Assembly: GCA_965214615.1 (NCBI GenBank)
Contig: OZ243952.1
Span: 2,445,734-2,509,733 of the forward strand
DNA length: 64,000 nt
Direction: 5' to 3'
From: Arenicellales bacterium
Lineage (GTDB): Bacteria; Pseudomonadota; Gammaproteobacteria; Arenicellales; JAJDZL01
Within the stretch, counting starts at the first letter, position 1. Every line of letters begins with the position of its first letter. Shown here in pieces: positions 27,283-62,997 of the stretch. The position numbers and the translations under genes were made by a program. The notes beneath the pieces are model-generated. The model searched no databases. It was given only the letters and a program-made list of their open reading frames with translations, and had not been told where the DNA came from.

Positions 27283-27314
27283 TCCACCCCCCCCCTCATA
27301 TCAAGGTGGGAATG
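27279..27314 (-). promoter_or_regulatory. Translation-initiation region of the giant gene: SD-like G tract, start-codon-occluding hairpin, 6-codon uORF
   Basis: mRNA: CAUUCCCACC-uugauaugaGGGGGG-GGGUGGAAUG. CAUUCC pairs with GGAAUG (includes the AUG) and ACC pairs with GGU, leaving one bulged C. The uORF is AUG AGG GGG GGG GUG GAA UGA (27299..27279); its UGA overlaps the main AUG (AAUGA). Function is inferred only. Confidence 0.35.
27287..27295 (-). repeat. Homopolymeric G9 tract (C9 on + strand) 4 nt upstream of the giant gene's ATG
   Basis: + strand reads attcca-ccccccccc-tcatatc. On the mRNA strand this is ..gatatgaGGGGGGGGGtggaATGagtggc. Confidence 0.95.
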
Positions 27315-29778
27315 AATCCGTAGTGCGTATCCTTGAATATCAAAGCGACGGGAATTGCGATGGCAGTTCCGTCTTAACCAATCAAACACCAGAATATTTC
27401 CTAAATATAATAAATATATGATAGATATCTTATATTGCACAATAGATTGCGCCTATTTTAACAAATTTGCAATCAGAATCCATCCAATTCATTCAGTCTA
27501 GAAAATTAGACTTGAATGAATGGCAAAGGCCGAGTTGGGCAACTCTCAATGAGTCATCCTGGACGTTGAATCGCAAACTGAATTGTTAGGTAGTATTGCA
27601 GCTATTCTCGTCCAGCAAATGAAGCGCTAAAGTGAGGGGTGCCGATAAATAGAGAACACCACCAAGCGCTTAGAGAAGGTTGAGTTGGAGATAGGATTGG
27701 TTCGCGTGCAGTTTTTGCAAATACCATGGTCATATAATTGTTCTACATCTACGAAATTGTCAAAATACGTTTCGGTTACTTGGTAATGTCAGCACAATGA
27801 CTGCTTCGACAAGAATCGAAAGCTGAAAAACGGATGCGGACACCTCAAGAGCAATACGCGTCAGACGTTATGAGCAGTTCTCAGACGAGTGTGTATGGTG
27901 CGCATATGCCGAACCAGCGAAACTGAGCATTTCATTGAAAAAACTTCCATCGTTGTGGGAAGTTTGCACCTTGGACCAAGGCATGAGGATCCGCGAATAT
28001 CTGCTGCGAGTCAGTTTCATCCTGACTCTTCCTATCACATCTGCAAATTGTTCCATGGTTTCTCAAACCCCGCCGCACCTTGCAAAGATCGACGTCAGTC
28101 GCACTAGAATCCGTGTCATGATGTTCAACCGCTGCACCACCTAGACGATGCAATTATGATCAATCACCTTGTCCAAATCCAACCGGAACCGGTGAAAGGA
28201 ATAAATTTATATTTCAGTCGTAATTATAACATCATGAGATTTTTTTTCGAATGTCCATTTTTCGACGAGGTGCCTCAGATTTCGGCGTCAACCCAATGAA
28301 CGCATCGGGTTGCTACTCATTTTCTTGCTATCCTTCGATAGTGTCGGATACTTTCAAAATGCCCCTATATTGCGACACAGCCTATGGATGCCGAATTAAT
28401 CTGAACTTCATTGACCAAATGTAATTCCGGTTGCACCCTATATCGTTAAATGAAACATTTACCGTCGATTTGTCGAGTTAAAACTGTGATTGCACTGAAT
28501 ATACGTGTGTTCGGATCCACGCCGAGCAAAACCATAGCCTTGGCTTGCACTGGCGTCATTTGCACCACCACCGGCACCGTCGCGTCAATCCTTCCAGGCA
28601 GCAAATCCTCATTGAACGTCAAGGTCGACAATTCGTCGAGCACCATAGCAAAGTTGTGCACCGGATAGTCGTCTTTTGGTCTTTTTTGTCACCGCCCTTT
28701 CCATTGCCCGGTCCGATACCTGCACCTTGGCCACCGCTGAGACTCGGCACGCAAGCACCGAGTCGTGTTCGTCTTCGAATAACACCGGCGCAAACCTTGC
28801 GCGCATGTGCCGTTCGAGTGTTGCCGCCGGTCGGACGTATTTCCGCAGCGATTGTTAAGCGCAATCTAATTCAGGTGACCCAGAGTCAACGCCGCGAGGC
28901 CGGCTGCGTTTGCAAGTGGAGCGTTTGCGAGGGTATCAAGAACCTGAGCGATATCGCCACAGTCGAATTCGGTTTAGCGACCGTCCGCTTGCTGTCGATA
29001 CGCGGCGTTCAAAAAAGTCGGCAAATGCCAATTGCTGCCTAACCCTACTCCTACGCTAATCTACCCAGGTCTGGAATTGGGAGAAAGTTCGCAGAATTCG
29101 GTTCATAGACACACACGTACCGAGATGGCGCAGCCGACTGCCCGAAGACTTGGCGAACCAATGTGGTTCTGCCAATTTGGAGCGGACAGGTTGCGATCGT
29201 CAACCACCGATGAATCTCCCGCAGGCGGTCGACTGGCGTGGATATCTGACCTCGTGCATAGGATGCCATAGCAGCAATCCAATGTATTGAGCGAATTTAC
29301 TCGAAACATTTCATCACTCGACGAAATCGATGGCCGCAGAGATTCGAGGCGCAACCTGGCTGGTTCTTGCTGCGCCGGGAGGTTTCCTTACAGGCAGGCG
29401 TACGTACGGCGAACGTAATTCGAGTAATCATTCGACTCTGACGCGGCGCGCTCACAGATGACCTGATCCCAACCTCCGTTGACACGGAATGGAAGCATGG
29501 GATCGAGGATGCTCGTCGGTCTGCAAAATACAATCCGGATGGTATTCACCGCGATACCTGCGAACAATTGAATGAAGCGCGAATTTGAACTGCTTCGGCC
29601 ATTTCGGTTATTATTTTTTCATTCTGGTCAGGAAATTAGCGACTCATTCCCAGTATCGCAACTGAACGCGAGCAGCGCTCCGCGATCCGAACAGAGCAAC
29701 CGGTTGCTCAGAAACACCTAAACCCACAGAATCAGAGACATCACGTTCACATTCAATTGAAATTCGTAAATCACCGCA

Positions 29779-31783: not shown

Positions 31784-32062
31784 CTATGCCGTAACTGATA
31801 AGCGTACACCCAACGCATGCATCAACCGGTGGATGGTGTGCCATTTGGGTTGTACCTGACCATTAATCACTTTGTAGAGACTCTCGCGGTTCAGCCTAGC
31901 TGCTTGAGCCACCTGAGCGACACCCTTACGCTTGACGGCATGACCTAAGGCCACGACAAAGACAGCAGGGTCATCGTCCTCGTAGGCATCAGTCAGATAT
32001 TGAGATAGATCATCGTCGACTAGTAAATGATCAAAGGGATTATAGTCCGTCAGCTTAGTCAT
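31784..32062 (-). CDS. higA: HigA-family addiction-module antidote protein (HTH antitoxin)
   Basis: MTKLTDYNPFDHLLVDDDLSQYLTDAYEDDDPAVFVVALGHAVKRKGVAQVAQAARLNRESLYKVINGQVQPKWHTIHRLMHALGVRLSVTA matches the antidote-protein pattern (..PFD..YL.D.E....YL........DP.....ALG.IA...G....A...G..RE.LY..L......P.....V.KV..ALG..L). It starts 4 nt downstream of the toxin gene. Confidence 0.85.
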   Translation of the reverse strand: MTKLTDYNPFDHLLVDDDLSQYLTDAYEDDDPAVFVVALGHAVKRKGVAQVAQAARLNRESLYKVINGQVQPKWHTIHRLMHALGVRLSVTA

Positions 32063-32066
32063 GGTC

Positions 32067-32366
32067 TCAAACCTCCAATTCGCTCAATATTCGATGCGCG
32101 CGGGCAATATCGCGTGATTGACTGGACTTATCACCAGCGCACAACAAAATGAGAAGGTCGCTATCACGTATCGAAAAGTATATCCGGTAACCTGGCCCTG
32201 CGAATACTCTCATTTCACTCACGCCCTGCCCCACTGGCTTGGTGTCGCCAAGATTTCCGGCAACTGCTCGGTCCAATCGTTGAGCGATAGCCCTCGCAGC
32301 CTGGCGGTCGCGGACCCGAGATAGCCAGCGATTGAAGTCATCGGTGGTAACTACGTGATAGCGCAT
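32067..32366 (-). CDS. higB: HigB/RelE-superfamily addiction-module killer protein (toxin)
   Basis: MRYHVVTTDDFNRWLSRVRDRQAARAIAQRLDRAVAGNLGDTKPVGQGVSEMRVFAGPGYRIYFSIRDSDLLILLCAGDKSSQSRDIARAHRI matches the killer-protein pattern (F..WL..L.D..A...I..R..R...GN.GD.KPVG.GVSE.RI..GPGYR.YF......L..LL.GGDKS.Q..DI..A). The ORF-track start at 32384 is an alternative. Confidence 0.85.
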   Translation of the reverse strand: MRYHVVTTDDFNRWLSRVRDRQAARAIAQRLDRAVAGNLGDTKPVGQGVSEMRVFAGPGYRIYFSIRDSDLLILLCAGDKSSQSRDIARAHRILSELEV

Positions 32367-32411
32367 ACGCGCATTGTAGCTCATGAGCTACACGGAGACA
32401 AGGCAACTTAC

Positions 32412-32458
32412 GTATAAACATCAAGCCCCGAGTTAACTGTGGTTTGATGAAAGGATTG
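32412..32458 (-). repeat. Right terminal inverted repeat of the IS4-like element
   Basis: See the left repeat. The similarity also shows up as matching C-terminal tails of two shadow ORFs (..DRIQSLHQTTANSG vs ..DRLQSFHQTTVNSG). Confidence 0.85.
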
Positions 32459-32944
32459 CAACCTGTCCGGGCATTGATCCGGTGGTTGGATGCCGCCAGC
32501 CTGATGTGCATATCCTCGGCTTCGCCGTTGACCTCGGCGATTGCCGCGACAAATTCGCAGGACATTCCGGTGATTGCAGTTTCCGCAATCGATCTTTGCA
32601 CGGGCCTGCGTATCACATGCCGACAATATTTCGCGTCTGACTGAAGGGAACGTAAATAAATTACCCTTCCAATGGAATTGATGGTGTTATAAATGGCGAG
32701 ACAGAAAAGTTACACAAAGAAATCTTTTACGCAAATAGCAAGCAACACTAAATAAGGATGTTGCTGTCTTTACGAAAGGACCGGAAAGGGAAGTTCGCTC
32801 ATTGAATCGGTATTTCAAAAATAGGCAGATGATTTAGTTTATTTATTTTATTCATAGACTTAAATTAATTATTTAATTTATTACCTGATATTAAGTGTCA
32901 AATCTTGGAACAGGAGGGCGGATATTGTAACGCTCAGCGTAAAG

Positions 32945-33423
32945 TTGGAATATGTGGAACCCGAAGTAAGCAGAACCCTGCTGGTGCCATATGATTTGAC
33001 ACTAGACGACTTGCACGACACTTTGCAACGTGCCTTCGGTTGGGACAATAGTCACCCATGGCTGTTCGAACTTGCAAGACAATCTAGAAGACAGGTTGTT
33101 CCCGAATGGCTATTCGAAGATGACGAAGTATGCGAAACTACCGTCCGTGACACCATGTCCGCACTTTGATGTATTTGTACGACTTCGGAGACAAATAGGA
33201 GCACCGCAAACGTATCGGAAGAAAGGCAAAGGCCAAGCGAGGTCAGCTGTATCCTCAGTTGGTCGAAAGGAAGGGAAGGACGCCGCCGGAGGACGTCGGC
33301 GGACCTCCGGGCTACGCACATTTTTTGAAATCACTCGGCAGGGACCACTATCCAAAACGCGGGGTTTATGTGCAGTGGTATCAAGCAAAGTTTGACCGTT
33401 TCGATACGAAAGAGGAAAACTAA
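32945..33423 (+). pseudogene. Plasmid pRiA4b ORF-3-like family protein, inactivated (frameshift plus TAG nonsense)
   Basis: ..LSVKLEYVEPEVSRTLLVPYDLTLDDLHDTLQRAFGWDNSHPWLFEL.. (frame 1, stop at 33167-69) continues after a frame slip as LMYLYDFGDK*EHR...YPQLVERKGRTPPEDVGGPPGYAHFL... The family hallmark YDFGDxWEH has its TGG replaced by TAG. No clean ATG start. Confidence 0.7.
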
Positions 33424-33658
33424 AACAGAACGTTTTGTCGTGGGCTGATTTCTTGTCCGGAAGTTTTGAAGACGAATGACATTTCCGCAACCGGATATCA
33501 GCACGGACAGGACGACGGATGCCGCAACAGATGCAAAAAGAGTTTCAAAGATTTCAGTCAAGGGCAGTCATTTGCAGCATGCATGTTGCAATGCAAATTC
33601 ATTGTAACAGGGCAGTACTAGGTTTCGCGACGTTCATCAATTTCCATTCGCAGCCGCT

Positions 33659-34894
33659 ATGCAAGCCACAATGAATTCCACGAATCCGCACCACCGCATG
33701 GACGCGGGGCCTGAATCGCTATTGGCCCGGCTGAATCAACTCTCAACCCGCGACGATTCGCGATTCGGCACCTTCGATGAAGACGGAATTGTCCACTTCG
33801 CAGGCGAATTCTGGACTGCGCAGCAACGCCAAGGCAACCGCATCCATGAAATCAGCTACCGTGCGTGCTTCAAGCCGCAACTGCCTGAATTTTTCATCAA
33901 TCGCCTCACCGAACCGGGAGACATCGTCTATGACCCGTTCATGGGCAGGGGAACAACTCCCGTCGAGGCTGCGCTTCAAGGGCGTGTCCCTTATGGCAGC
34001 GACATCAACCCGCTCAGCAAGGCACTCGCAGAACCGCGAATCAACCCTCCTTCGCTCAAGGCCGCGATGAAACGGCTCGAGCAAATTCCGTGGAGCAGTT
34101 TTCGCCGATACGAGCATCGGGATCTCCTAGCCTTCTACCACCCGACAACACTGGCTCAAATCGAGGGACTGCGCAACTGGCTCGCCGAACGCGAATCGTC
34201 AGACCGAATGGATCAGGCGGACCGGTGGATTCGGATGGTCGCGATCAATCGGCTGACGGGACACTCTCCCGGCTTTTTCTCGGTCTACACAATGCCGCCA
34301 AATCAGGCAGTCACCGTAGAGCGCCAACGGCTGATCAACCAGCGCCGCGGGCAGACGCCGAGTCTTCGGGATGTGCCTGCCATTATTGCAAAAAAGTCCA
34401 AAGCCCTGCTCAAAGACGAAGCACCGCAGACACGCGACTGCCTGCTGCTCACCTGCGAGTCCGACAAGACATTCCAAATTCCGCCGGATTCGGTCACCCT
34501 GACAGTGACGTCGCCTCCATTTTTGAAAGTCGTCAATTATGAGACGGACAACTGGCTGCGATGCTGGTTCCTGGGCGTCGACTCCAGACAGGTCGCGATT
34601 GCAAGCTACTCCAGTCTCAATTCGTGGCAAGCATTCATCGCGCGCACGCTCAATGAGCTATACCGGATTACCCGCCCAGGCGGGCACGTCGCATTCGAAG
34701 TCGGCGAAGTTCAAAAGGGCACGGTCAAATTGGAAAAAAATGTGGTCGCAGCAGCAGCCGATACAGGATTCAAGATCGAGTGCATCATCATCAATCAGCA
34801 AAATTTCACCAAGACATCCAACTGCTGGGGCATTGCCAACAACACCTCGGGCACCAACAGCAACCGGATCGTCGTGCTGCGCAAAGAGCCATGA
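33659..34894 (+). CDS. Orphan alpha-class N4-cytosine/N6-adenine DNA methyltransferase (N4/N6 MTase family)
   Basis: 411 aa. AdoMet motif I DPFMGRGTT (aa 92-100) precedes catalytic motif IV TSPPF (aa 284-288), which is the alpha-type order. SPPF/SPPY is most typical of N4-cytosine enzymes. No endonuclease-like neighbour. Its stop overlaps the pdxJ start (ATGA). Confidence 0.85.
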   Translation: MQATMNSTNPHHRMDAGPESLLARLNQLSTRDDSRFGTFDEDGIVHFAGEFWTAQQRQGNRIHEISYRACFKPQLPEFFINRLTEPGDIVYDPFMGRGTTPVEAALQGRVPYGSDINPLSKALAEPRINPPSLKAAMKRLEQIPWSSFRRYEHRDLLAFYHPTTLAQIEGLRNWLAERESSDRMDQADRWIRMVAINRLTGHSPGFFSVYTMPPNQAVTVERQRLINQRRGQTPSLRDVPAIIAKKSKALLKDEAPQTRDCLLLTCESDKTFQIPPDSVTLTVTSPPFLKVVNYETDNWLRCWFLGVDSRQVAIASYSSLNSWQAFIARTLNELYRITRPGGHVAFEVGEVQKGTVKLEKNVVAAAADTGFKIECIIINQQNFTKTSNCWGIANNTSGTNSNRIVVLRKEP

Positions 34895-40415: not shown

Positions 40416-41720
40416 CTATAGAATGCCGGTTCTATGGGTTTGCCGTATTTGCCTGATCAAATGTTCATCGACACCGGCTTCATCGGCAAATGACTCCCAT
40501 TGCGCTACTGCGCTTTGAACCTGATCGATAATTTGCTCGGCGCGACCGCGCTTCATGGAAGCGTGCTTCGCACAAGCTTTGAAATCATCCAGCTGAAAGT
40601 TGTCGCGTTTACCGTTCAGAGTCATTTGATGTGCATTCGTCCAAGCGCCTTCAGAATTGAAACTGTAGGTCAGATCGTAAGCCGGCGCAAGTCTCCAATT
40701 TCCCCCGCGATCCATAAGGAAGGCAATATTCTTGACGTGATCATCCTGATTTCGGGCGATGACGTTGAAAGACATTCTTCGAAACTGCTCTTCAACCGAA
40801 TCCATCGATTTTTCCAAGTCTCGGATTGTCGCGAGACACTGCTCGTAGGAATAGACGCCAGGCATTCTGTAATCGTAATGGCTTATCGCGCCCAACGTCT
40901 GCATGTGAAGTTTTCGTCCGCTCCCAGTCCGATCGAATCGCCTCGTCATAAAATGGCTTCGTCCGTTTTCCTTGAGCAACCGACTTTCCATCATGTCAAT
41001 ACCGGCGGCTTGCGCCATTTTGTAATAGCCAAATTCAATCAGCCCGTAGCCGGTCGAAGCGCTGAAATGCACATCGTTGAAACCACCTGAGACGCCATCG
41101 AATTTCAAAAGCCAATAGGAAAATCCATCTTCAGCGTCCGCCTGCCCCGACCTCACTTCATTGGTTTCCGGATTCCACGCGATGACCGCTTTCGCTCTGG
41201 CGCCGCCCGCTGATGTTCCAACTCGCAGAATTTCCTCCATGACGCGATTCTCCCTGCCTGACGATAGTGACATGCAAAAATTGTGCCGGTCTGACAATAT
41301 TTTTTCCGCCAGAGCTACGAGTTCGCCGACTTCGACAATTTGCGACCACGTTGCACTGGGACCGATAACTGGAAGATATTCGATTGCCCCCATCCCTCGA
41401 GCGCCAACATAGCAAAGCCGTTCGACCGGATTGAAAGACTCTGCGCTTCGCCCCTGCATCGCTAGCCACGCATCAATCAGCGCATTTCCGAAATCATCCG
41501 GCAAGGAATCCGCCACCAGGCCAGGTAATCCGTGAAATGTGTCTCTGGGCAATGCAGGAAACGAGTAAATCCGCCGGGCAAGAGGCATGGTTAGCGGAGC
41601 CACCTCGATCGAGCTGTCAGCGAATCCCGGATCGTATTCGAACGACGCAACATTTGCCGCTGCATTCCAACTCACAGCGCCTACCGTTTTCCTCCACAGG
41701 CGCACTTCGGCGACAGTCAT
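40416..41720 (-). CDS. hipA: HipA-family serine/threonine kinase toxin
   Basis: 434 aa. HipA N-domain (..VGAVSW......FEYDP.F......VAPL.MP..), ..LAGAQ-like region, and a catalytic loop ..ARNQDDHVKNIAFLMDRGGNWRLAPAYDLTYS.. that appears intact. Its start overlaps the hipB stop by 1 nt. Confidence 0.85.
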   Translation of the reverse strand: MTVAEVRLWRKTVGAVSWNAAANVASFEYDPGFADSSIEVAPLTMPLARRIYSFPALPRDTFHGLPGLVADSLPDDFGNALIDAWLAMQGRSAESFNPVERLCYVGARGMGAIEYLPVIGPSATWSQIVEVGELVALAEKILSDRHNFCMSLSSGRENRVMEEILRVGTSAGGARAKAVIAWNPETNEVRSGQADAEDGFSYWLLKFDGVSGGFNDVHFSASTGYGLIEFGYYKMAQAAGIDMMESRLLKENGRSHFMTRRFDRTGSGRKLHMQTLGAISHYDYRMPGVYSYEQCLATIRDLEKSMDSVEEQFRRMSFNVIARNQDDHVKNIAFLMDRGGNWRLAPAYDLTYSFNSEGAWTNAHQMTLNGKRDNFQLDDFKACAKHASMKRGRAEQIIDQVQSAVAQWESFADEAGVDEHLIRQIRQTHRTGIL

Positions 41721-42067
41721 CAGTCATCTCCCCATGACCAGGGTTTCGGAACTGCGCGCTTCCTTATCCCGGATGACGCTCTGCGGCGGGTCCTGCCCTG
41801 CATTTTGAGCTGTTGCATCGGGCTTATCTCCGATTCAGGCAGCAATGCTCCGAAGTTTTCCGCCAAGCCGAGTGTGCGAAAGACTCGAATCAGGCTTACC
41901 AATTGAACCGACCCGCCGGATTCAATGCGCGCCAAAGTGCGCAATGAAATTCCAGACTCTTTCGCAACTTCGGCCTGAGTTCTATTTTGATTGAGTCGGG
42001 ACCGCGCAATTCTGCGCGCCAATTCATTCATGATTGAATCGTCTGATGAGTTTTGGGTTATATTCAT
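41720..42067 (-). CDS. hipB: HipB-like XRE-family HTH antitoxin with basic C-terminal tail
   Basis: ..LARRIARSRLNQNRTQAEVAKESGISLRTLARIESGGSVQLVSLIRVFRTLGL.. is a Cro/C1 HTH. It sits directly upstream of, and coupled to, hipA. The tail ..RTRRRASSGIRKRAVPKPWSWGDD contains Trp near the C-terminus, as in E. coli HipB. Confidence 0.75.
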   Translation of the reverse strand: MNITQNSSDDSIMNELARRIARSRLNQNRTQAEVAKESGISLRTLARIESGGSVQLVSLIRVFRTLGLAENFGALLPESEISPMQQLKMQGRTRRRASSGIRKRAVPKPWSWGDD

Positions 42068-42307
42068 AATATGTCATTTATTAATTTTTACTATGATTTA
42101 ATCTTCTTATAATGCCATATATTGCGTTTAAAACAATTCACGAAAAAGATTTTTTCTGTTCGACGTAGGTCCGATCTGTCTCATCGACTAATTCTGCAAG
42201 CGGTCAGTCACTAACAAAATGGATGCCCTTCAGAGGGTTTAAACGGCATCACAATGTGCCGGATCGAATTGAACCGGTCGAGAAAGTAAATCATAAGGAG
42301 TATCCAG

Positions 42308-42670
42308 ATGAATCATATTCAAGAAATCCACAAGGCAGGTGTGGACTTGGCGAAGAACGTGATTCAGGTATTTACGGTTGACGATAAAGGCAAGGCGGTA
42401 TGAATCGTCGTTTGTCGAGAACCAAGGCGCAAGGGGTTTTCTCAAAGAGTTTGAACAGGTAAATTCGAGGTTGCCTTGAAAGGTGTATCCATAGATATCT
42501 CAAGGGCACTGAAGGCGGACAGCATGAACGTGCTGCTGAACTGTGCCGAACGCAACCTGCGGCTGACCTGAAACGTTTGAGAAACAGTCGTGCGCGAATA
42601 TTATGTCGCTCAGTATTTCGCTGGACCATTCACCAAAACGGGGGCTCTCAGGTGCCATTTACGGTTTTAG
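42308..42670 (+). pseudogene. IS110-family (DEDD) recombinase, N-terminal fragment with several frameshifts
   Basis: MNHIQEIHKAGVDLAKNVIQVFTVDDKGKAV* matches the family start (IGIDLAKNVFQVHGVD.KGK.V). Shifted frames then give ..RGFLKEFEQV.., ..EVALKGVSIDISRALKA..NVLL.., ..VAQYFAGPFTKTGA (compare ..PQFVKPFVK..). Only ~120 of ~340 codons remain. Confidence 0.6.
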
Positions 42671-42833
42671 CGCGTTGCCCGTTGCGTAAGGCCGTCTGAG
42701 CTTCCGACAGCTTGACATTCATCAGTTCGAAAATCGACAGATTATCGTTTTATTCAGAGGCGACTAGACTGGTATCGCCTTTGCTACTTGTCCTGGTGTG
42801 GCGTTTTCGTAATTGGACTCAAGGAATTTCTTT

Positions 42834-43271
42834 CTAAGTCCAAGGATTGACTACCTTGGCACCGGTATTTACAAACTCGCTTTCGTTGCGTGTAACTATC
42901 ACACAACCACATCGAATAGCTGTTCCAGCGAGCATTGCGTCCGGAAGATGGCCATCGAACGGTTCACCCCGTCGACGTTTTTCCTCCATGATGCGGGCGC
43001 AAATTTCAGCATCGGCAACAGTCCAGTCAAAAATCCGATCTTCAAAGACATCAGCGACTAATCTCTGAAAGCGTTCAGCAATATCGTTACGGCGCTTTCC
43101 AGAATCCAATTGGCCGATGCCATTGAGGATTTCCCAGACAGTTATTACGGCAAGACCAATCCCTGCCGGAGTAATTTCATCAAGAAAATTGGCAACCCGA
43201 GGTTCCGGGTTCGGGCGCATCATCTCGGAGAGAATATTTGTGTCGAGTAGCCAGGACGTAGGCGCTGTCAT
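42834..43271 (-). CDS. vapC: PIN-domain ribonuclease toxin (VapC/FitB-like)
   Basis: ..WLLDTNILSEMMRPNPEPRV..FL......L.VITVWEI..G.........R....F..L......I..W....A...A........G.P....DAMLAGTAI..GCVIVTRNESEF. The conserved acidic residues of PIN toxins are present. ATGA overlap with the upstream antitoxin. Confidence 0.85.
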   Translation of the reverse strand: MTAPTSWLLDTNILSEMMRPNPEPRVANFLDEITPAGIGLAVITVWEILNGIGQLDSGKRRNDIAERFQRLVADVFEDRIFDWTVADAEICARIMEEKRRRGEPFDGHLPDAMLAGTAIRCGCVIVTRNESEFVNTGAKVVNPWT

Positions 43272-43525
43272 GTTCCACCCTTGTCGGAAAGCGAAACAGG
43301 TTTATAGCCATAGCGTCCAGAAAGTGGCAATTCAACTCCATGTTCCTGCCCGAAATATCGTCGGAAGGCTTCTGACGGCTTTGTATGTGCCTCCGAACGC
43401 TTACGCGTATCGTGGATCAAACGGCGAACAAACTCTTCCATTGAGAGACCTCTATGCGCCGCTTCCTGCTTGATCCATGATTTATCGCTCGGATTGATGT
43501 TTCGAACAAGTATGGCAGAACTCAT
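43268..43525 (-). CDS. vapB: RHH (Arc/FitA-like) antitoxin of VapBC module
   Basis: MSSAILVRNINPSDKSWIKQEAAHRGLSMEEFVRRLI... is a typical ribbon-helix-helix N-terminus (L.VRN......L...AA..G.SME...R.IL). 85 aa, 4-nt overlap with vapC. Confidence 0.75.
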   Translation of the reverse strand: MSSAILVRNINPSDKSWIKQEAAHRGLSMEEFVRRLIHDTRKRSEAHTKPSEAFRRYFGQEHGVELPLSGRYGYKPVSLSDKGGT

Positions 43526-43889
43526 TGGAATACTCCTTGTTCAGTTGACTGTGGAATTCAGAATGATCTACAGAATGACATAGTGATAGCAAAATCAATA
43601 GATACAATTATTGACCTTGCTCCAAGAACCTGTACAGGGAATATTACGACCGAAAATGCCCGTGTCGGGGGCAAGTCGGCGCGATTCGGGGCAATTTCGC
43701 CAGGAATTAGGGCAAGTTCACTGAACCTAAGACATTCGCATCCGCTCAACAACAGTCAATTGCGACACAGTTTTTTGTCATTGAGCAATTTTTGATGACT
43801 TTCACTGAAATGTGAAGTTTTAAAAGTCGAGTAGATTTTTCCCCGAGGCTTCGTGATCAAATCAGGAAATTGAAAATCAGCATGAAGTT

Positions 43890-43940
43890 CAATATCAAGA
43901 TTAGAGTCACCGCTTCGCGCCGACATTAATCTTGATATTG
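43890..43940. repeat. Perfect 14-bp inverted repeat with 23-nt spacer in the vapB-der intergenic region
   Basis: caatatcaagatta (43890-43903) ...23 nt... taatcttgatattg (43927-43940). No adjacent U-tract, so it is not a classical terminator. Confidence 0.9.
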
Positions 43941-44227
43941 GTGAAATAGCGCTTATCTGCTGTAGACAGGGCTCACCAATCGCGGGCGGTAAAATGCATT
44001 TAATGTTTCGCTCAAATTGGAAAACTTCAACTCAAATTCGAGACGGCTGAGCAGTTTGGGCGATTAATCATTAAGGCAATATTACGCGCTTCAATTTGGC
44101 GACCAAATTGCATGAACAACGCGCCAGCCATCGGGGACATCGAAATCGCTGGTCGTAGGCGTATCGCGACAAAGGCGTCTAATCGACCCAATTCCATTGA
44201 TTCGTCAATCTGGAACCAAACCGTCGC

Positions 44228-57012: not shown

Positions 57013-59583
57013 ATGGCACGCGGCCCGAAAGGCAGGCAAACGCCGATGATGCAGCAGTACTGGAGCATCAAGGCTGACTATCCCGATACGCTCCTGTTCT
57101 ATCGCATGGGCGACTTCTACGAACTGTTCTACGAAGACGCCGAAAAGGCTTCGAAATTGCTCGACATCACCCTGACCAGCCGCAACAAGTCCGATGCGAA
57201 CCAGATTCTGATGGCCGGCGTCCCGGCCCACAGCGTCAACCACTACATTGCAAAGCTGGTCAACCAGTCAATCCCTGTAGCCATTTGCGATCAGGTCGGC
57301 GACCCGAAAACGTCCAAGGGCCCTGTCGAGCGCAAAGTGACCCGTGTTCTGACACCGGGCACCCTCACCGATGACAGTCTGCTTGATGCGCGATCGGAAA
57401 ACCTGCTCGCGGCCGTGCAGACCCGGCGCGATGCGCGCGCCATTGCCCAATTGGAGCTTTCGAGCGGAAGATTCTCGGCGCGCGTTCTCAGCGACAGCGA
57501 ATCCGTCGAGTCTGAATTGGCGCGCATCGGCGCAGCGGAGATTCTTGTCGCCGACAACGATGATATCGATATCGGAGGCGCCCGGATACAGCAGGTGCCG
57601 GATTGGTACTTCAGCTACGAGCGCGCGGCACAGATTCTCAAGTCCCAGTTCCGGGTTCCGGACGTATCTGTTTTCGATGGCGACCGCTACCCGGCTGCGA
57701 CCTCTGTTGCCGGCGCCTTGCTGCAATACGCCAAGGATGTCTACGCATCGGATTTTCCGCACATACGAAGCTTGCGGATCGAGAAGCCGGAATACTATCT
57801 GATTCTTGACCACCACAGCTGGCGCAACCTTGAAATCGAATCGACGCTTGGCGGCGAATCCAAGGGCGCCCTGCTGTCGCTGTTTGATCAATGCGCAACT
57901 GCGATGGGGGCGAGGCAGCTTCGAAGATGGTTTCGCAATCCCGTACGCAACCGCGACGAGATTGAGCGGCGGCATCAGATTATCGGACATTTCTGCGACA
58001 GCGCCCTGCATCAGCGTGCCAAGGCAGGTCTTCGGGAAATCTCCGATCTGGAACGCATCGTTTCGCGCATCGCCACCAAGTCGGCAACTCCGATTGATCT
58101 GGCAGCGCTTCGAAACTCTTTGGAAGCCCTGCCTGAACTGATGTCCGCCATAGTGCCGGACAACTGCGGCGCACTTGCCGAACTATGCGCCATGATCGAT
58201 CCGCTGCCGGACACATCGGATCTGATCAGGCGCTCAATTCGCGATGAGCCGGCCGCCGGACTGCGCGACGGAGGCGTGATCCGCGAAGGATACGATGCCG
58301 AACTGGATGAACTGATCAGGCTGCGCGACGGATCCGACGCCGCACTTTCGCAGATGGAGGCGCGCGAGCAGGAGCGCACCGGGATCAGGAACCTTCGAAT
58401 CCTGTACAACCGCGTATACGGCTATTCCATCGAAGTATCGCGCCTTGCCGCCGATCAGGTTCCCCAGGACTACATCCGGCGTCAGACGCTGAAGAACAAG
58501 GAACGCTACGCGACTGCCGAGCTTCGCGAGTTTGAAAGCCGCATTCTCAGCGCGCGCGAGCGCGCGGTCGCCAAGGAGCGCGCCCTGTTCGACGAATTGC
58601 TTGAACAGCTTCTGGCGCAAGTTCCAGGCATTCAGCAGACAGCCCAGGCGCTGGCGCAGATCGATGTCCTGAGCAACTTCGCAGAACGCGCATCCAGTCT
58701 GATTCTGAACCGCCCGACACTGACAGAAAAACCCGGCATCTTTATTGAAGACGGACGTCACCCGGTCGTAGAGAGCGTGCCGAATCAGCAATTCGTACCG
58801 AACTCGGCGCGATTGCCGCACGAGCGCAGACTGATGATGATCACGGGACCGAACATGGGCGGCAAGAGCACCTACATGAGACAGACTGCGCTGATCGCAT
58901 ATCTGGCCCATGTCGGGTCCTACGTCCCCGCCAAGGAAGCGACCATCGGCCCGCTGGACCGCATCTTCACCCGCATCGGCGCATCGGACGACCTGGCCAG
59001 CGGCAGATCGACATTCATGGTGGAAATGACGGAGATGGCGACGATCCTGCATGCCGCCACTGATAGCAGCCTGGTTCTGGTCGATGAAATCGGCCGGGGC
59101 ACCAGCACATTTGACGGGCTGGCCCTGGCCTGGGCGTGCGCTGTGAATCTGGCTCGCAAAGTGCAGGCATATACCCTGTTTTCGACCCACTACTTCGAAC
59201 TCACCGCACTGGCCGACATCATTCCGGGCACCCGCAATGTGCATCTGGACGCGGTCGAATACGACGGTGACATCGTGTTTCTCTACGAAGTGAAAGAGGG
59301 CGCTGCCCGGCAAAGCTACGGATTGCAGGTGGCGCGCCTGGCAGGCGTTCCCGAGGACGTCATCCGCGACGCAATGGTCAAGCTTGACGAACTGACACAG
59401 TCGGCCGATGCCCGGCAATCCGTAGCCAAGCCCCGTCCCCTGCAGCTGTCGCTGTTCAGCCAGCCCGACGCAGCCGATTCCCGGGTTGCGGAAAAATTGA
59501 ATAAAGCGCAGCCGGATGAGATGACGCCCCGCGAAGCGCTTGATTTTATCTACGAACTCAAGGCGCTCGGCGATCAAGGCTGA
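57013..59583 (+). CDS. mutS: DNA mismatch repair protein MutS
   Basis: ..[34 protein letters not shown].. , Walker [16 protein letters not shown], ..[22 protein letters not shown]. 856 aa. Confidence 0.95.
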
Positions 59584-59616: not shown

Positions 59617-61173
59617 TCAGCCGGCGCGCCGGCGGCACGGATTCAGCCTGATTGGAAACTTGTGCCGAATTGCTTTTTCGACTTCCCGGTCAAGATGGTC
59701 CGGCACCGGCTGATCAAGAATCTCGCGGGTCTTGCGGCGTGCGATTTCAAGTAGATCGGGTGCGCCCTTTTGGTGCCATTCCTGCGGCGTGTTCCGGTCC
59801 GACAGATCGGGATAGTAGTAATCGGTCTGCATGCGGTCGATCGTCTGGCTATGTCCGAGAAAATGACCCGGTCCGTTCAGGCACACATCGCGGATCACAT
59901 CGAACGACAAGGTATCCGAATTGACTTCGATGCCTCTGGTCGCACGAAGAATTCCGCCGATCATATCATTGTCTAGCACGAAGCTCTCAAGCGAGCAGGC
60001 AAGCAACGATCCGTACATGCCTGCAGCTTCGTAAATCAGGTTTGCCCCGGCCAGGGCGCTGAGCAACTCGGTGCAGCCCTTTTCATAGCCCGCCTGAAAG
60101 TCCGGCACCTTAGAATCGGTCATACCTGCCGAAACAGCGCACGGAATCCCGTAGTACTGCGCCATCTGGGCGCAGCCGGCCATAAGCAGCCCTTCCTCGG
60201 CGCTACCTCCCGACATCGCACCGGTTCTGAGATCGGATACGAACGGCAAGGCTCCGAACAAGGCCGGATGCCCGGGGCTGAGCTGATTGACATAGACCAG
60301 GCCCGACACCACTTCGGCAGTCTGCAGCGCAATCGCCCCGGCCAATGGCGCCGGACTCGTCGCCCCGGCCTGTCCGGCGGAAACCAGCTTCAGCGGCGTG
60401 CCGGTTGCGGCAGCGCATTCGATCACGCCGAGCGCTTCGCGGGCGAATGTCAGCGGCGGGACAACAAAGCATGTCGACACGCACATGAAGGGCCGGTCGC
60501 GCCATGCGTCATCGCTTCCGGCAATCATGCGCATCATTTCAACACCTTCTGACATGTGCGCAGCATCGACAAAACTGGTTCCAATGTGCTTGGACGTACC
60601 GGCGATGCAGGCAAACGCCGTATTCAGGTCCATTTCCCGCGGGTCTTGAAGATCGCAAGGCACGCATGTGCGCTGGAACATGTGGATGTTGGACAGTGCG
60701 TTAGCCAGCCTCGCCATATCATACAGGTCTGCCAAAGTCGAAGGACGGACCTCTCGAGTCGCCGAATCGACGATGCTGACCGCTGCGCCGGAGGTGCCCA
60801 GATGAATGCGCGTCTCAGTCGGATCGATGTCGCACTCCGGATCCAGCGCGTAAAGCTGAAACGACTTGCCCGCCCGCTGCAACGACTCCTCGACAAGCCT
60901 TTCGGGCATCAGCAGCCGTCCGGCGCTGTCAAGCCTGCCGCCCGCTTTGACAATCGTATCGATGCAGCGCTGCGACGCGCCTTGCATGCCCACAGTCTCG
61001 AGAATCCGGATCACCGTCTCGTGAATGCGCTCGACATCACTTTGATTGAACGGCCTGTAGTGTCCGCCTGAAACTCCGGGCCAAATCGCAGGCGACGGGC
61101 CGCTGCCGGCTCCGTCCTGGCGCGCCGCCAGTCGGATTGCGCGCGCATTTCCTCTTCGGCGATGGCGGCTCAT
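59617..61173 (-). CDS. MttB-superfamily (trimethylamine methyltransferase-like) protein, non-pyrrolysine type
   Basis: 518 aa from the Met at 61173 (AGGTG 6 nt upstream). MSRHRRRGNARAIRLAARQ.., ..VERIHETVIRILETVGM.., ..GTSGAAV.I.D..T...R..T..DL....RL...L.., ..SAGMTDSK.PD.QAGYEK.., ..FLGH..T. No in-frame TAG, so no pyrrolysine. Confidence 0.85.
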   Translation of the reverse strand: MSRHRRRGNARAIRLAARQDGAGSGPSPAIWPGVSGGHYRPFNQSDVERIHETVIRILETVGMQGASQRCIDTIVKAGGRLDSAGRLLMPERLVEESLQRAGKSFQLYALDPECDIDPTETRIHLGTSGAAVSIVDSATREVRPSTLADLYDMARLANALSNIHMFQRTCVPCDLQDPREMDLNTAFACIAGTSKHIGTSFVDAAHMSEGVEMMRMIAGSDDAWRDRPFMCVSTCFVVPPLTFAREALGVIECAAATGTPLKLVSAGQAGATSPAPLAGAIALQTAEVVSGLVYVNQLSPGHPALFGALPFVSDLRTGAMSGGSAEEGLLMAGCAQMAQYYGIPCAVSAGMTDSKVPDFQAGYEKGCTELLSALAGANLIYEAAGMYGSLLACSLESFVLDNDMIGGILRATRGIEVNSDTLSFDVIRDVCLNGPGHFLGHSQTIDRMQTDYYYPDLSDRNTPQEWHQKGAPDLLEIARRKTREILDQPVPDHLDREVEKAIRHKFPIRLNPCRRRAG

Positions 61174-61211
61174 AGACGCACCTGAGTCTGAAGACCGGGA
61201 CATGAACAAGC

Positions 61212-62402
61212 CTATCCGGGTCGGGCAAAAAATTCCTGGCACAGCGCAAGGAAACGAGCGGCCGGGTCGGAAAGAACGGCATTGGCAAGATGCGCGGCGA
61301 CAATCCGGCTCGGTTCGGCCGATGCGTCAAGAGCACGGGTAACGAGCGCACGCCCGTCGTAGGTCATCGGCGAAGCCGGCTTGGTTGCGAGCAAGGTGAA
61401 GCCAAGACCGTGTCCGACCATGCCGCGCACCATCTCAAAGCTCGACGAGCGGAATGCGATGTTCGGCTCGACTCCGGCATCTTCAAAAATTGCGGTGAAA
61501 TAGCTCCTGCTCGGCGATGCATCCAGCAATACCATGGGATATCCGGCCAGATCACGGGGAGTCAGCGAAGGCTTGCCGGAAAGCGGATGGCCTTCGGCCA
61601 GCAGGACAAACGGCTTTAGCCGGGTCAGCGGGCAAAGGACCAAGTCATTCGGAAGATCGATGTCGTAAACCAGCGCGATTTCAATCTCTCCGGCATGCAG
61701 GGATTCGAGCACCCTGCGATGATCGCCCTCTACGAGATTGATCCGGCCCGGCGAATCGCCGGTCTTGATTTTCCGGATCAGCGACGGTAGAAAATACGGC
61801 CCGAACGTATAAAAGCAGCCGACAGACAGTGTTTCCCCTTCATCTGCTGCATCCGATTCAAGCACGGGTGCGCGATCGATCCGGGTCGTCACTCCGTAGG
61901 CCCGGTTGGCATAGATCAGCGGCGACCCTCCCTGAGCCACAAAAATATCGGTTACTTCGCCCAAAAACACATGGTGCGTCCCCACCAGACTCGACGACAT
62001 GAGCTCACAATCGAAACAGACCAGAGGATCGACGACCCGAGGTGCGCCCGACGGCATCGCGGTCCAATTCGCACATTCGAACCTGTCCTTTGCGGCACCT
62101 TTGAGACGTCCTGCAAACGCATCCGAAATGTAGGTCTGATCGTCACGAAGCACGTTGACGCAAAAGACCTGGTTGTCTATTATTTTCTGCGCAGTCGAAC
62201 TGAGATGATGGACGCAGGCCAGCAGTGTCGGCTTCGGCGTGTCGGCCGATACCGAGGACATCGCAGACACTGTCACTCCCGCACGGCCGGCCACGCCGTC
62301 GGTGGTGACGATGTTTACCGTGCAGGCAGCATGGCTCATGCCTTCCAGAAATCTGCTTCGAAGATCGGAACTCGATTGAGTCGGCATTGTCGACTTTCCC
62401 AT
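61212..62402 (-). CDS. Fusion protein: N-terminal flavin-reductase-like domain + C-terminal LysR-type substrate-binding domain (no HTH)
   Basis: aa ~15-175: ..FLEGMSHAACTVNIVTTDG..GRAGVTVSAMSSVSADTPKPTLLACV.....T...I.....FCVNVL...Q..ISD.FAG.....DRF......., ..THHVFLGEV.DI.V..GGSPLIYANRAYG (HpaC/flavin reductase pattern). aa ~190-390: ..LSVGCFYTFGPYFLPSLIR.......G.I.LVEGDH..VLESL..GEIEIALVYD.., ..GHGLGFTLL (LysR effector domain). No winged-HTH segment anywhere. Confidence 0.8.
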   Translation of the reverse strand: MGKSTMPTQSSSDLRSRFLEGMSHAACTVNIVTTDGVAGRAGVTVSAMSSVSADTPKPTLLACVHHLSSTAQKIIDNQVFCVNVLRDDQTYISDAFAGRLKGAAKDRFECANWTAMPSGAPRVVDPLVCFDCELMSSSLVGTHHVFLGEVTDIFVAQGGSPLIYANRAYGVTTRIDRAPVLESDAADEGETLSVGCFYTFGPYFLPSLIRKIKTGDSPGRINLVEGDHRRVLESLHAGEIEIALVYDIDLPNDLVLCPLTRLKPFVLLAEGHPLSGKPSLTPRDLAGYPMVLLDASPSRSYFTAIFEDAGVEPNIAFRSSSFEMVRGMVGHGLGFTLLATKPASPMTYDGRALVTRALDASAEPSRIVAAHLANAVLSDPAARFLALCQEFFARPG

Positions 62403-62673
62403 GCTATTAGGATTGAACCATGTCGGTCATTGTCTAGTGTGCCATAATTTACCGTCGCATACGCAGGCAATTGACGCGTCGCCGCCCTGAAATTCGGCAA
62501 ACGCGCCTTGAACGGAAGCGATCGCCTTGAATCGGCGCCGTCTGCGTAGCAAGAGGATTGGTCTGCGGTCTCTGAACAACCCGGCACAAACAGAATTTCG
62601 CGCAACATTCATCCTTGAATTACAATAGTCGCTTCACATTTGAACCAACTCAATCCGTTGCCAATCTGAAGAT

Positions 62674-62997
62674 ATGACATTTGTTGTTACAGAATCGTGT
62701 ATCAAGTGCAAGTACACGGACTGCGTGGAGGTGTGTCCGGTGGACTGCTTTCACGAAGGTCCCAATATGCTCGTAATCGACCCCGAAGAGTGCATCGACT
62801 GCAGTCTTTGCGAACCCGAGTGTCCGGTTACCGCAATCTATGCGGACGACGACTTGCCGCAGGAACAGGAAGAGTTCCTTGAACTGAATGCCGAATTGAG
62901 CCTGGAGTGGCCTGTCATATCGGTCATAAAGCCCGGCCCTGCGGATGCGGCGCAGTGGGAGGACGTCAAGGAAAAGCGTCACCTGCTCGAGCGCTGA
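62674..62997 (+). CDS. fdxA: 7Fe ferredoxin (Azotobacter FdxA type, [3Fe-4S][4Fe-4S])
   Basis: [55 protein letters not shown] is the diagnostic Cys spacing and near-invariant N-terminus of FdxA. Confidence 0.9.

Follow-up and report, generated by a model that had tools for sequence, protein, structure and literature searches.

What does a flavin reductase do with the effector-binding domain of a LysR-type regulator, and does it serve the methyltransferase gene that it precedes? The question is raised by a locus of an Arenicellales bacterium (assembly GCA_965214615.1), which we analysed within a 64,000-nucleotide stretch of contig OZ243952.1 (positions 2,445,734 to 2,509,733 of the forward strand; hereafter the window, whose first letter is position 1 of all window coordinates). 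There, a gene that joins the two domains, which we call the fusion, lies directly upstream of a homologue of the methyltransferase MttB. A preliminary description, made from the sequence alone, saw in the pair a two-gene module in which a ligand-gated flavin reductase provides the MttB-type enzyme with reducing power or regulates it.

Based on domain, structure and neighbourhood comparisons, we consider it reasonably probable that the fusion is an effector-gated NAD(P)H:flavin reductase serving HpaB-type/Rieske oxygenase pathways and that the MttB homologue is independent of it. The gated reductase of the earlier proposal is thus retained, in line with the architecture of the protein and with the precedent of the reductase C1, but MttB as its client is not, since no MttB gene adjoins the fusion in any of 160 loci.

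A single gene encodes both domains

The fusion gene (61212..62402, minus strand; open reading frame (ORF) list and Pfam) is one unbroken frame of 396 codons from its first ATG; database gene calls start at Met6 (62387) and give a product of 391 aa. Its N-terminal part is a flavin reductase domain of the HpaC/RutF/CobR type (PF01613 Flavin_Reduct, residues 22-170, 61893..62339, minus strand) and its C-terminal part a LysR-type effector-binding domain (PF03466 LysR_substrate, residues 188-392, 61227..61841, minus strand). They are joined by a linker (residues 171-187, 61842..61892, minus strand) to which AlphaFold2 gives a low predicted local distance difference test score (pLDDT). Both domains score above their Pfam cutoffs: the reductase reaches 104 bits against 27 (E 1e-29), and the effector domain, which covers profile positions 4-208 of 209, reaches 124.7 bits against 28 (E 4e-36).

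Neither HTH_1 nor any other DNA-binding family was found in the fusion by Pfam at E<=0.01. A winged helix-turn-helix (HTH) has no space in the protein, because just 21 N-terminal and 17 linker residues lie outside the domains. Without the N-terminal winged HTH (PF00126), the fusion is not a LysR-type transcriptional regulator (LTTR). A degenerate HTH, for which there is neither space nor a Pfam match, was accordingly rejected. We also rejected a split into two ORFs: the frame runs through without a break, and the lengths of the homologues are uniform (375-477 aa), with both domains present in all of the 120 best matches. The architecture first read from the sequence, an HTH-less fusion of the two domains in one gene, is therefore confirmed. 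The preliminary description had added that such a protein has no described function, and full-text literature searches indeed returned no paper describing a flavin-reductase/LysR fusion.

The predicted fold of the N-terminal domain matches CobR, TftC and others. Its best solved relative is CobR (3cb0, 39% identity, E 7e-29), and it matches the C1 reductase at E 4e-7. The NCBIfam models for RutF (133 bits, cutoff 254.75) and HpaC (109 bits, cutoff 205.95) both score below cutoff; by sequence, the domain represents a subfamily distinct from the named equivalogs RutF, HpaC, HsaB and StyB, and its similarity to CobR is no more than can be expected within the HpaC class. For the C-terminal domain, the best solved relative is HinK/PA0218 (6m5f, 3fzv; ~40% identity, E 9e-45). 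AlphaFold2 predicts two confidently folded domains (mean pLDDT 82) and disorder for residues 165-188 (pLDDT <50). With this linker and a predicted template modelling score (pTM) of 0.53, the domains have no defined mutual orientation in the model.

A search of 5.8 billion protein clusters gave at least 1508 homologues of the fusion, and 469 loci were found in genomes scanned at one per GTDB species. The nearest of these belong to Arenicellales metagenome-assembled genomes (MAGs; 60-71% identity) and the remainder mostly to Rhodobacterales, Hyphomicrobiales and Rhodospirillales, carriers being mainly marine and soil Alphaproteobacteria plus Arenicellales. One Arenicellales genome has two paralogues ~1 Mb apart (L003 and L005, both on OY282380.1). 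An alignment of 116 members contains 58 invariant columns, many of them in the reductase half, which is the more conserved one, and the fusion of the window keeps all 58 residues. Invariant residues of the C-terminal domain include P202, P297 and Y348-D349-G350, and T199-F200-G201 and S298 are nearly invariant; we infer that these conserved residues line the ligand cleft.

The fusion often travels with HpaB-type oxygenases

Gene neighbourhoods were compared by tblastn in the 80 best of the 469 genome loci. An HpaB-type oxygenase is found in 38 of these 80 loci, in 33 of them within 3 kb and mostly upstream on the same strand. Also frequent are DUF1028 (36 loci, 32 within 3 kb), RidA (34 loci, 29 within 3 kb), an M20 (ArgE-like) deacylase (23 loci, 17 within 3 kb), a Rieske oxygenase (21 loci, 20 within 3 kb) and a flavoprotein like trimethylamine dehydrogenase (TMADH) or StcD (11 loci, 5 within 3 kb). 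These identities were upheld by Pfam, and among solved structures the HpaB-like neighbour comes closest mostly to oxygenase components of two-component systems. A separate collection of 80 metagenome loci, serving as an independent replicate, was obtained by an alignment-based scan, a single-protein query having given none. Among the 67 loci of this set with usable flank, 32 contain HpaB, 17 Rieske, 39 RidA and 39 DUF1028 genes.

In around two-thirds of the non-gammaproteobacterial genome loci, an HpaB-type and/or Rieske oxygenase adjoins the fusion, usually together with RidA, DUF1028, the M20 deacylase and a HinK-like LysR regulator; an oxygenase or oxidoreductase lies within 4 kb in 43 of these 59 loci. 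For example, the operon on pTAV3 of Paracoccus versutus, whose fusion is WP_084197026.1, reads HpaB-RidA-DUF1028-ArgE-LysR-fusion. The LysR regulator of this operon is a match to HinK (E 4e-60) and shares 33% identity with the C-terminal domain of the fusion. The fusion appears to add to the reductase a sensor paralogous to the pathway's own LysR regulator. A complete HpaB-fusion-RidA-DUF1028-M20 cluster is also present in L032, whose contig was binned as Acidimicrobiia; this placement points to horizontal transfer or to mis-binning.

The same cluster can be found with a reductase that has no sensor. Rhizobium sp. ACO-34A has HpaB, RidA, DUF1028 and LysR together with a stand-alone flavin reductase (ATN37343.1) and no fusion, and this reductase is 58% identical to the N-terminal domain of the window's fusion over 165 aa. 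In Bacillus badius and Halomonas, a stand-alone reductase likewise adjoins this HpaB-type oxygenase. Because a stand-alone relative takes the place of the fusion in these clusters, the N-terminal domain is most simply read as the reductase of an HpaB-type system. In Halomonas sp. PA16-9 (L091, 8001-9451), the HpaB-like gene consists of two overlapping ORFs, through a frameshift or an assembly error, and the stand-alone flavin reductase follows this split gene.

An effector-gated reductase is the probable function

In two-component flavin monooxygenases, a reductase that runs without substrate wastes NADH and yields H2O2. The fusion would be a short-chain reductase of the HpaC/RutF/CobR class to which a LysR-type effector domain was added at the C-terminus. 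By binding a pathway metabolite, the sensor domain would release or stimulate NAD(P)H-dependent flavin reduction, so that reduced flavin would be produced solely when the substrate of the partner oxygenase is present. Such a substrate-dependent supply would avoid futile NADH oxidation and H2O2 formation. The conserved clients would be reduced-flavin-dependent HpaB-type oxygenases, often with a Rieske oxygenase too. A Rieske client is not implausible, since PrnF, a reductase like HpaC, works for the Rieske N-oxygenase PrnD.

Such gating has a precedent in C1, the reductase of the Acinetobacter baumannii p-hydroxyphenylacetate (HPA) hydroxylase, in which a C-terminal MarR/NadR-like domain keeps the reductase slow until the oxygenase substrate binds (PMC11618861). 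While the architecture of the fusion, the clients of its family and the relatives of its sensor were observed, its gating, effector identity and flavin specificity are inferred.

As for the effector, HinK senses imidazole-4-acetate and controls hinFLHG, which converts imidazole-4-acetate to aspartate in Pseudomonas (PMC8231116). In the annotation, the products of the hin2 genes are an FAD-monooxygenase, an enamine deaminase, an amidase and a formylaspartate deformylase (PMC6467879). By annotation, RidA, DUF1028 and M20 fit HinL, HinH and HinG, and the HpaB-type oxygenase would correspond to the monooxygenase. Since the gene set resembles the hinFLHG/hinK route, an acid that contains nitrogen and is similar or related to imidazole-acetate is the probable effector. 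The assignment of the cluster to a hin-type pathway stays a lead. The Rieske neighbours are GbcA-like, below cutoff; together with the StcD-like neighbours they suggest N-methylated variants of imidazole-acetate-like substrates.

Several points weigh against an effector-gated reductase of oxygenase pathways. For every member of the family, sensor gating is argued from analogy, and AlphaFold2 shows no confident interface between the two domains (pTM 0.53). An oxygenase or oxidoreductase lies within 4 kb of the fusion in only 3 of the 21 Arenicellales or gammaproteobacteria-labelled loci, and an HpaB-like gene is absent from the 64-kb window as well as from the extra 8.7 kb offered by L081, a contig of 44 kb from the same species. 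The HpaB fold of HinF is putative: the 120 matches listed for a gammaproteobacterial HpaB-like query are all closer relatives and include no Pseudomonas protein, and literature searches turned up no work on how HinF is folded. Lastly, the pair of fusion and MttB is ancestral to two fairly divergent genomes, and its 38-nt gap is without a terminator (see below).

The predicted lack of contact between the domains would also suit a constitutive reductase, in which the LysR domain would act without gating, either as an oligomerisation or docking scaffold or as a subunit that delivers substrate to the oxygenase or to MttB. Many HpaC-type reductases do function unregulated. Nonetheless, the invariant residues of the C-terminal domain are kept across the family, the domain is closest to an LTTR with a characterised ligand (HinK), and such domains gate reductases in the C1 precedent (PMC11618861). 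We regard a constitutive enzyme as unlikely, if still the likeliest of the alternatives.

The paralogy between the effector domains of the fusion and of the pathway's regulator (33% identity, as above) points to a different possibility, namely that the fusion is an HTH-less LysR decoy or co-regulator, which would modulate transcription through mixed oligomers with the HinK-like LTTR encoded nearby and use its flavin domain as a redox input. LTTR effector domains are generally known to dimerise. Of the 59 non-gammaproteobacterial loci, 25 have a full-length HinK-like LTTR no more than 4 kb from the fusion, and a HinK-like LTTR is present in 32 of the 67 metagenome loci. However, it is nearby in none of the 21 Arenicellales or gammaproteobacterial loci, and a decoy would not be expected to have the reductase as its better conserved half. 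Moreover, in clusters that lack the fusion its position in the operon is taken by a stand-alone orthologue of the reductase, which argues that the enzymatic role is primary. A decoy is for these reasons quite unlikely, and we continue to favour the effector-gated reductase.

MttB adjacency is confined to one lineage

The fusion ends with a stop codon at 61214-61212, and the MttB gene (59617..61173, minus strand) starts with an ATG at 61173, leaving a gap of 38 nt; an AGGTG ribosome-binding site (61179..61183, minus strand; sequence reading) lies 5 nt ahead of this ATG. The two-gene module was proposed from this arrangement, and co-occurrence of the two genes across genomes speaks against it. 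MttB was sought by tblastn within +-10 kb of the fusion in the genome set and within +-6 kb in the metagenome set, and was found in 0 of 80 and 0 of 80 loci, respectively. As a positive control, tblastn retrieved MttB in control loci and in the window itself. Phylogenetic linkage of the fusion to MttB genes is therefore absent.

Orthologues of the MttB protein show the same from the other side. Those of other Arenicellales (78-85% identical) are solitary and stand in unrelated contexts that the fusion does not adjoin; one of them shares a 1.13-Mb contig with a copy of the fusion, ~900 kb apart. The pair recurs only in L081, the contig of the same species. In Ruegeria-type genomes, orthologues with 69% identity belong to a MmgE/PrpD-MttB operon that is divergent from a LysR gene. 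In two such loci (L089, 6472-9554; L090, 6610-9557), the MttB orthologue overlaps the stop codon of the upstream MmgE/PrpD gene and the divergent LysR gene adjoins, and L090 has a second MttB paralogue adjoining a GCV_T aminomethyltransferase gene. We know of no description of MmgE/PrpD as a conserved partner of MttB. Derivation of the fusion's sensor from this MttB-associated LysR was ruled out, as there is no similarity between them (E 0.9).

A further Arenicellales MAG, L002, shows what became of the pair in a related genome. Its fusion and MutS are 71% and 73% identical to those of the window, and it shares with the window the order of genes for an aldehyde dehydrogenase, SuhB, MutS, the fusion, FdxA and a hydratase. 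In L002, the spacer between the fusion and mutS is just 172 nt long. It encodes GTPLKLASAMQSGAASHAP, a 19-codon relic of MttB at 11281-11337 (plus strand), 14 of whose 19 residues are identical to GTPLKLVSAGQAGATSPAP, residues 258-276 of the window's MttB (blastx E 7e-6). Compared as nucleotides, the relic matches MttB with 33.7 bits, a score that 0 of 200 shuffles of the spacer attained. It follows that the common ancestor of L002 and the window had the pair. MttB was then lost from L002 by deletion. The fusion of L002 is intact and retains every family-invariant residue. As L002 dropped MttB and kept an intact fusion, the function of the fusion is independent of an adjacent MttB. A recent horizontal gain of MttB in the window was ruled out by composition, its GC (0.605) and GC3 (0.69) being similar to those of its neighbours, and the relic marks a loss in L002 and not a gain here.

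The Arenicellales copies of the fusion have neighbours of their own: N,N-dimethylformamidase (DMFase)-like subunits, a class-III aminotransferase, FrmA/FrmB and an OpuAC-type transporter, or a tripartite ATP-independent periplasmic (TRAP) transporter and an amidase. Two islands (L092, 1775-17989; L093, 1-15215) contain Peptidase_S58, a class-III aminotransferase, DMF_alpha plus DMFA2_C (DMFase-like) and the fusion, to which L092 adds FrmA/FrmB and an OpuAC-type ATP-binding cassette transporter and L093 the TRAP transporter and the amidase. No oxygenase is present in these two islands. The contexts share a methylated-amine/amide theme into which MttB fits loosely.

This theme is one of the points in favour of a lineage-restricted link, in which the fusion would be a ligand-gated reductase that feeds or reactivates the corrinoid system of MttB by CobR-like cob(II)/cob(III)alamin reduction via reduced flavin and, under oxic conditions, stands in for a RamA-type activase or assists it. 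The genes share a strand, with a 38-nt gap, a ribosome-binding site and no terminator found between them, and the pair was present in the ancestor of the window and L002 lineages; the gap and this ancestry together are compatible with co-transcription and some lineage-specific coupling. The best solved relative of the N-terminal domain is moreover a corrin reductase, CobR. Against this, MttB adjoins the fusion in 0 of 160 loci, its nearest orthologues occur without the fusion, L002 kept the fusion after losing MttB, and the surroundings of the pair contain neither corrinoid-protein or cobalamin genes nor a riboswitch. CobR is also a far more distant relative of the N-terminal domain than the stand-alone reductase adjoining HpaB (39% against 58% identity). 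We keep this coupling as a quite improbable explanation because the Arenicellales loci mostly lack the usual client, share the methylated-amine theme and, in the window, have the 38-nt gap. Its most specific form, in which the Arenicellales fusion became detached from its HpaB-type client and was recruited under oxic conditions as a metabolite-gated, CobR-like reductase for the corrinoid partner of a non-betaine MttB, is very improbable; if true, it would provide an oxygen-tolerant, ATP-independent alternative to RamA-type reactivation.

With the effector-gated reductase of oxygenase pathways as the preferred reading, the adjacency of the fusion and MttB appears to be a lineage-specific accident of gene order in one Arenicellales lineage. 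It would reflect at most co-expression of the catabolism of nitrogenous or methylated compounds, and no two-protein machine. For MttB biology, a single gene neighbourhood is no basis for annotating the fusion, or for pursuing it, as an MttB partner.

The MttB homologue lacks pyrrolysine and the glycine-betaine-binding residues of MtgB

The MttB-superfamily protein has 518 aa, encoded without an in-frame stop, and is matched by PF06253 (E 9e-108). Within its coding sequence (60024..60123, minus strand), Rfam cmscan finds a match to PYLIS_3 with 58.1 bits against a gathering score of 38. Positions 1-3 of PYLIS_3 (UAG) align to AUG, codon 351 of MttB (60121-60123, Met351). Since AUG occupies the codon that is UAG in pyrrolysine (Pyl)-type mttB, the homologue is non-Pyl. 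The initial reading of the 38-nt gap, the AGGTG site and a 518-aa MttB without in-frame TAG is thus borne out by the sequence and by this alignment. Several predicted pairs of the PYLIS_3 match are non-canonical, and the match looks like coding-sequence homology and not like a functional RNA element. Through such matches, annotation that relies on Rfam could give non-Pyl MttB genes a wrong label. PYLIS_3 is the sole Rfam match, and the scan found no family upstream of the fusion, cobalamin riboswitch included; a riboswitch or other RNA element upstream of the fusion was accordingly ruled out.

The best solved relative of the protein is Desulfitobacterium hafniense MtgB (9yce, 2qne; E 5e-65). 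Glycine betaine is bound in MtgB by Y97, R312, H348 and F356, of which R312 is conserved across all characterised MttB members acting on acidic betaines (PMC13080624). In a phmmer alignment, the window's MttB has S, A, E and L at these four positions. As the Arg of the acidic-betaine members is replaced, its substrate would be one without a carboxylate, and is probably not glycine betaine or another carboxylated betaine. A non-carboxylated substrate is likewise probable for this abundant proteobacterial MttB clade.

Domain searches of the window's larger ORFs found no corrinoid-binding, RamA-type or pterin-methyltransferase domain, which agrees with the earlier statement that the window has no corrinoid-protein, activase or methyl-acceptor gene, and no corrinoid protein, MtgD or RamA gene was found near MttB. 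The MtgB-type proteins of aerobic marine bacteria have MtgC, MtgD, RamA and DUF1638 proteins as partners, and the solitary MttB orthologues are consistent with this mode of action. The MttB of the window would be a corrinoid-type methyltransferase in its own right, with the genes for its corrinoid protein, methyl acceptor and activase located elsewhere.

Other features of the window

Upstream of the fusion, the 7Fe ferredoxin gene fdxA (62674..62997, plus strand) is divergent at a distance of 271 bp from the longest start of the fusion, as initially described; its identity is supported by NCBIfam (FdxA_Protbact, 161.5 bits, cutoff 135). The intergenic region (62403..62673 by ORF coordinates) presumably holds promoters, and no consensus promoter or terminator was found in it or between the fusion and MttB. 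On the other side, mutS (57013..59583, plus strand; Pfam MutS domains I-V) is convergent with MttB, 33 nt apart, and by synteny with L002 it forms the other edge of the insertion site. The adjacency of mutS and fdxA is a housekeeping arrangement in gammaproteobacteria such as Pseudomonas, and L002 shares the arrangement of mutS with fdxA and the hydratase gene. The suggestion that the fusion is fed by the nearby ferredoxin is therefore not supported; fdxA is a housekeeping neighbour whose functional link to the fusion is weak.

Elsewhere, a third of the window is taken up by a single ORF of 6745 aa with repeated Calx-beta domains and a strong AT skew (7045-27282, minus strand), presumably a giant adhesin or a repeats-in-toxin (RTX)-like surface protein. 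A gene for a HipA-family toxin kinase is found at 40416-41720 (minus strand). Three patches of low GC (26000-28000, 32000-34000 and 42000-44000; GC 0.455-0.489 compared to ~0.57 elsewhere) may be small acquired islands, and the one at 32000-34000 overlaps an ORF with a DNA methylase domain (33659-34894).

Significance and comparison with known systems

By analogy with C1, the fusion would be an uncharacterised form of a known kind, the effector-controlled reductase component, with the LysR-type sensor as its new feature. To our knowledge, only a few reductases switched on by the substrate of the oxygenase have been described, and these are of the C1 type. The fusion looks like a second, independent solution to substrate-gated flavin reduction, built on a LysR effector domain. 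If the gating is true, it would make a ligand-switchable flavin reductase available for biocatalysis, provide a clean case of a transcription-factor sensor domain reused post-translationally and give a handle on an uncharacterised HpaB/RidA/DUF1028/M20 catabolic cluster that is common in marine bacteria.

Among the known MtgB/MttB systems (D. hafniense MtgB; R. pomeroyi MtgBCD, PMC12478193), the fusion corresponds to no recognised component. The MttB of the window is, like theirs, a full-length PF06253 protein without a Pyl codon. CobR, the co(II)rrin reductase of Brucella melitensis (3cb0, 4ira), shares the PF01613 fold with the N-terminal domain of the fusion. Unlike the fusion, it is a single-domain enzyme, and cobalamin (cob) genes are absent around the fusion within the 64-kb window. 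HinK (PA0218) of Pseudomonas aeruginosa contains the nearest solved effector-binding domain, and full-length regulators like it adjoin the fusion in many loci; HinK is a transcriptional regulator with a winged HTH, which the fusion does not have. The stand-alone HpaC/RutF-type reductases (ATN37343.1; Bacillus badius WP_052475209.1) occur in the same cluster context as the fusion, but terminate at the point where its linker starts and thus have no sensor domain.

The closest functional parallel is C1. The partner oxygenase of C1, C2, is not known as an HpaB-fold enzyme, unlike the usual partner of the fusion. The sensors also differ, that of C1 being helical and MarR/NadR-like whereas that of the fusion has the LysR-type periplasmic-binding-protein fold, so that the two are analogous and not homologous. 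Nonetheless, C1 (PDB 5zc2; PMC11618861) has its parts in the same order as the fusion, with a short-chain flavin reductase at the N-terminus, a flexible loop and a transcription-factor-derived domain at the C-terminus. Its sensor binds the substrate of the oxygenase and stimulates NADH-dependent flavin reduction (PMC11618861), which is the behaviour that we propose for the fusion.

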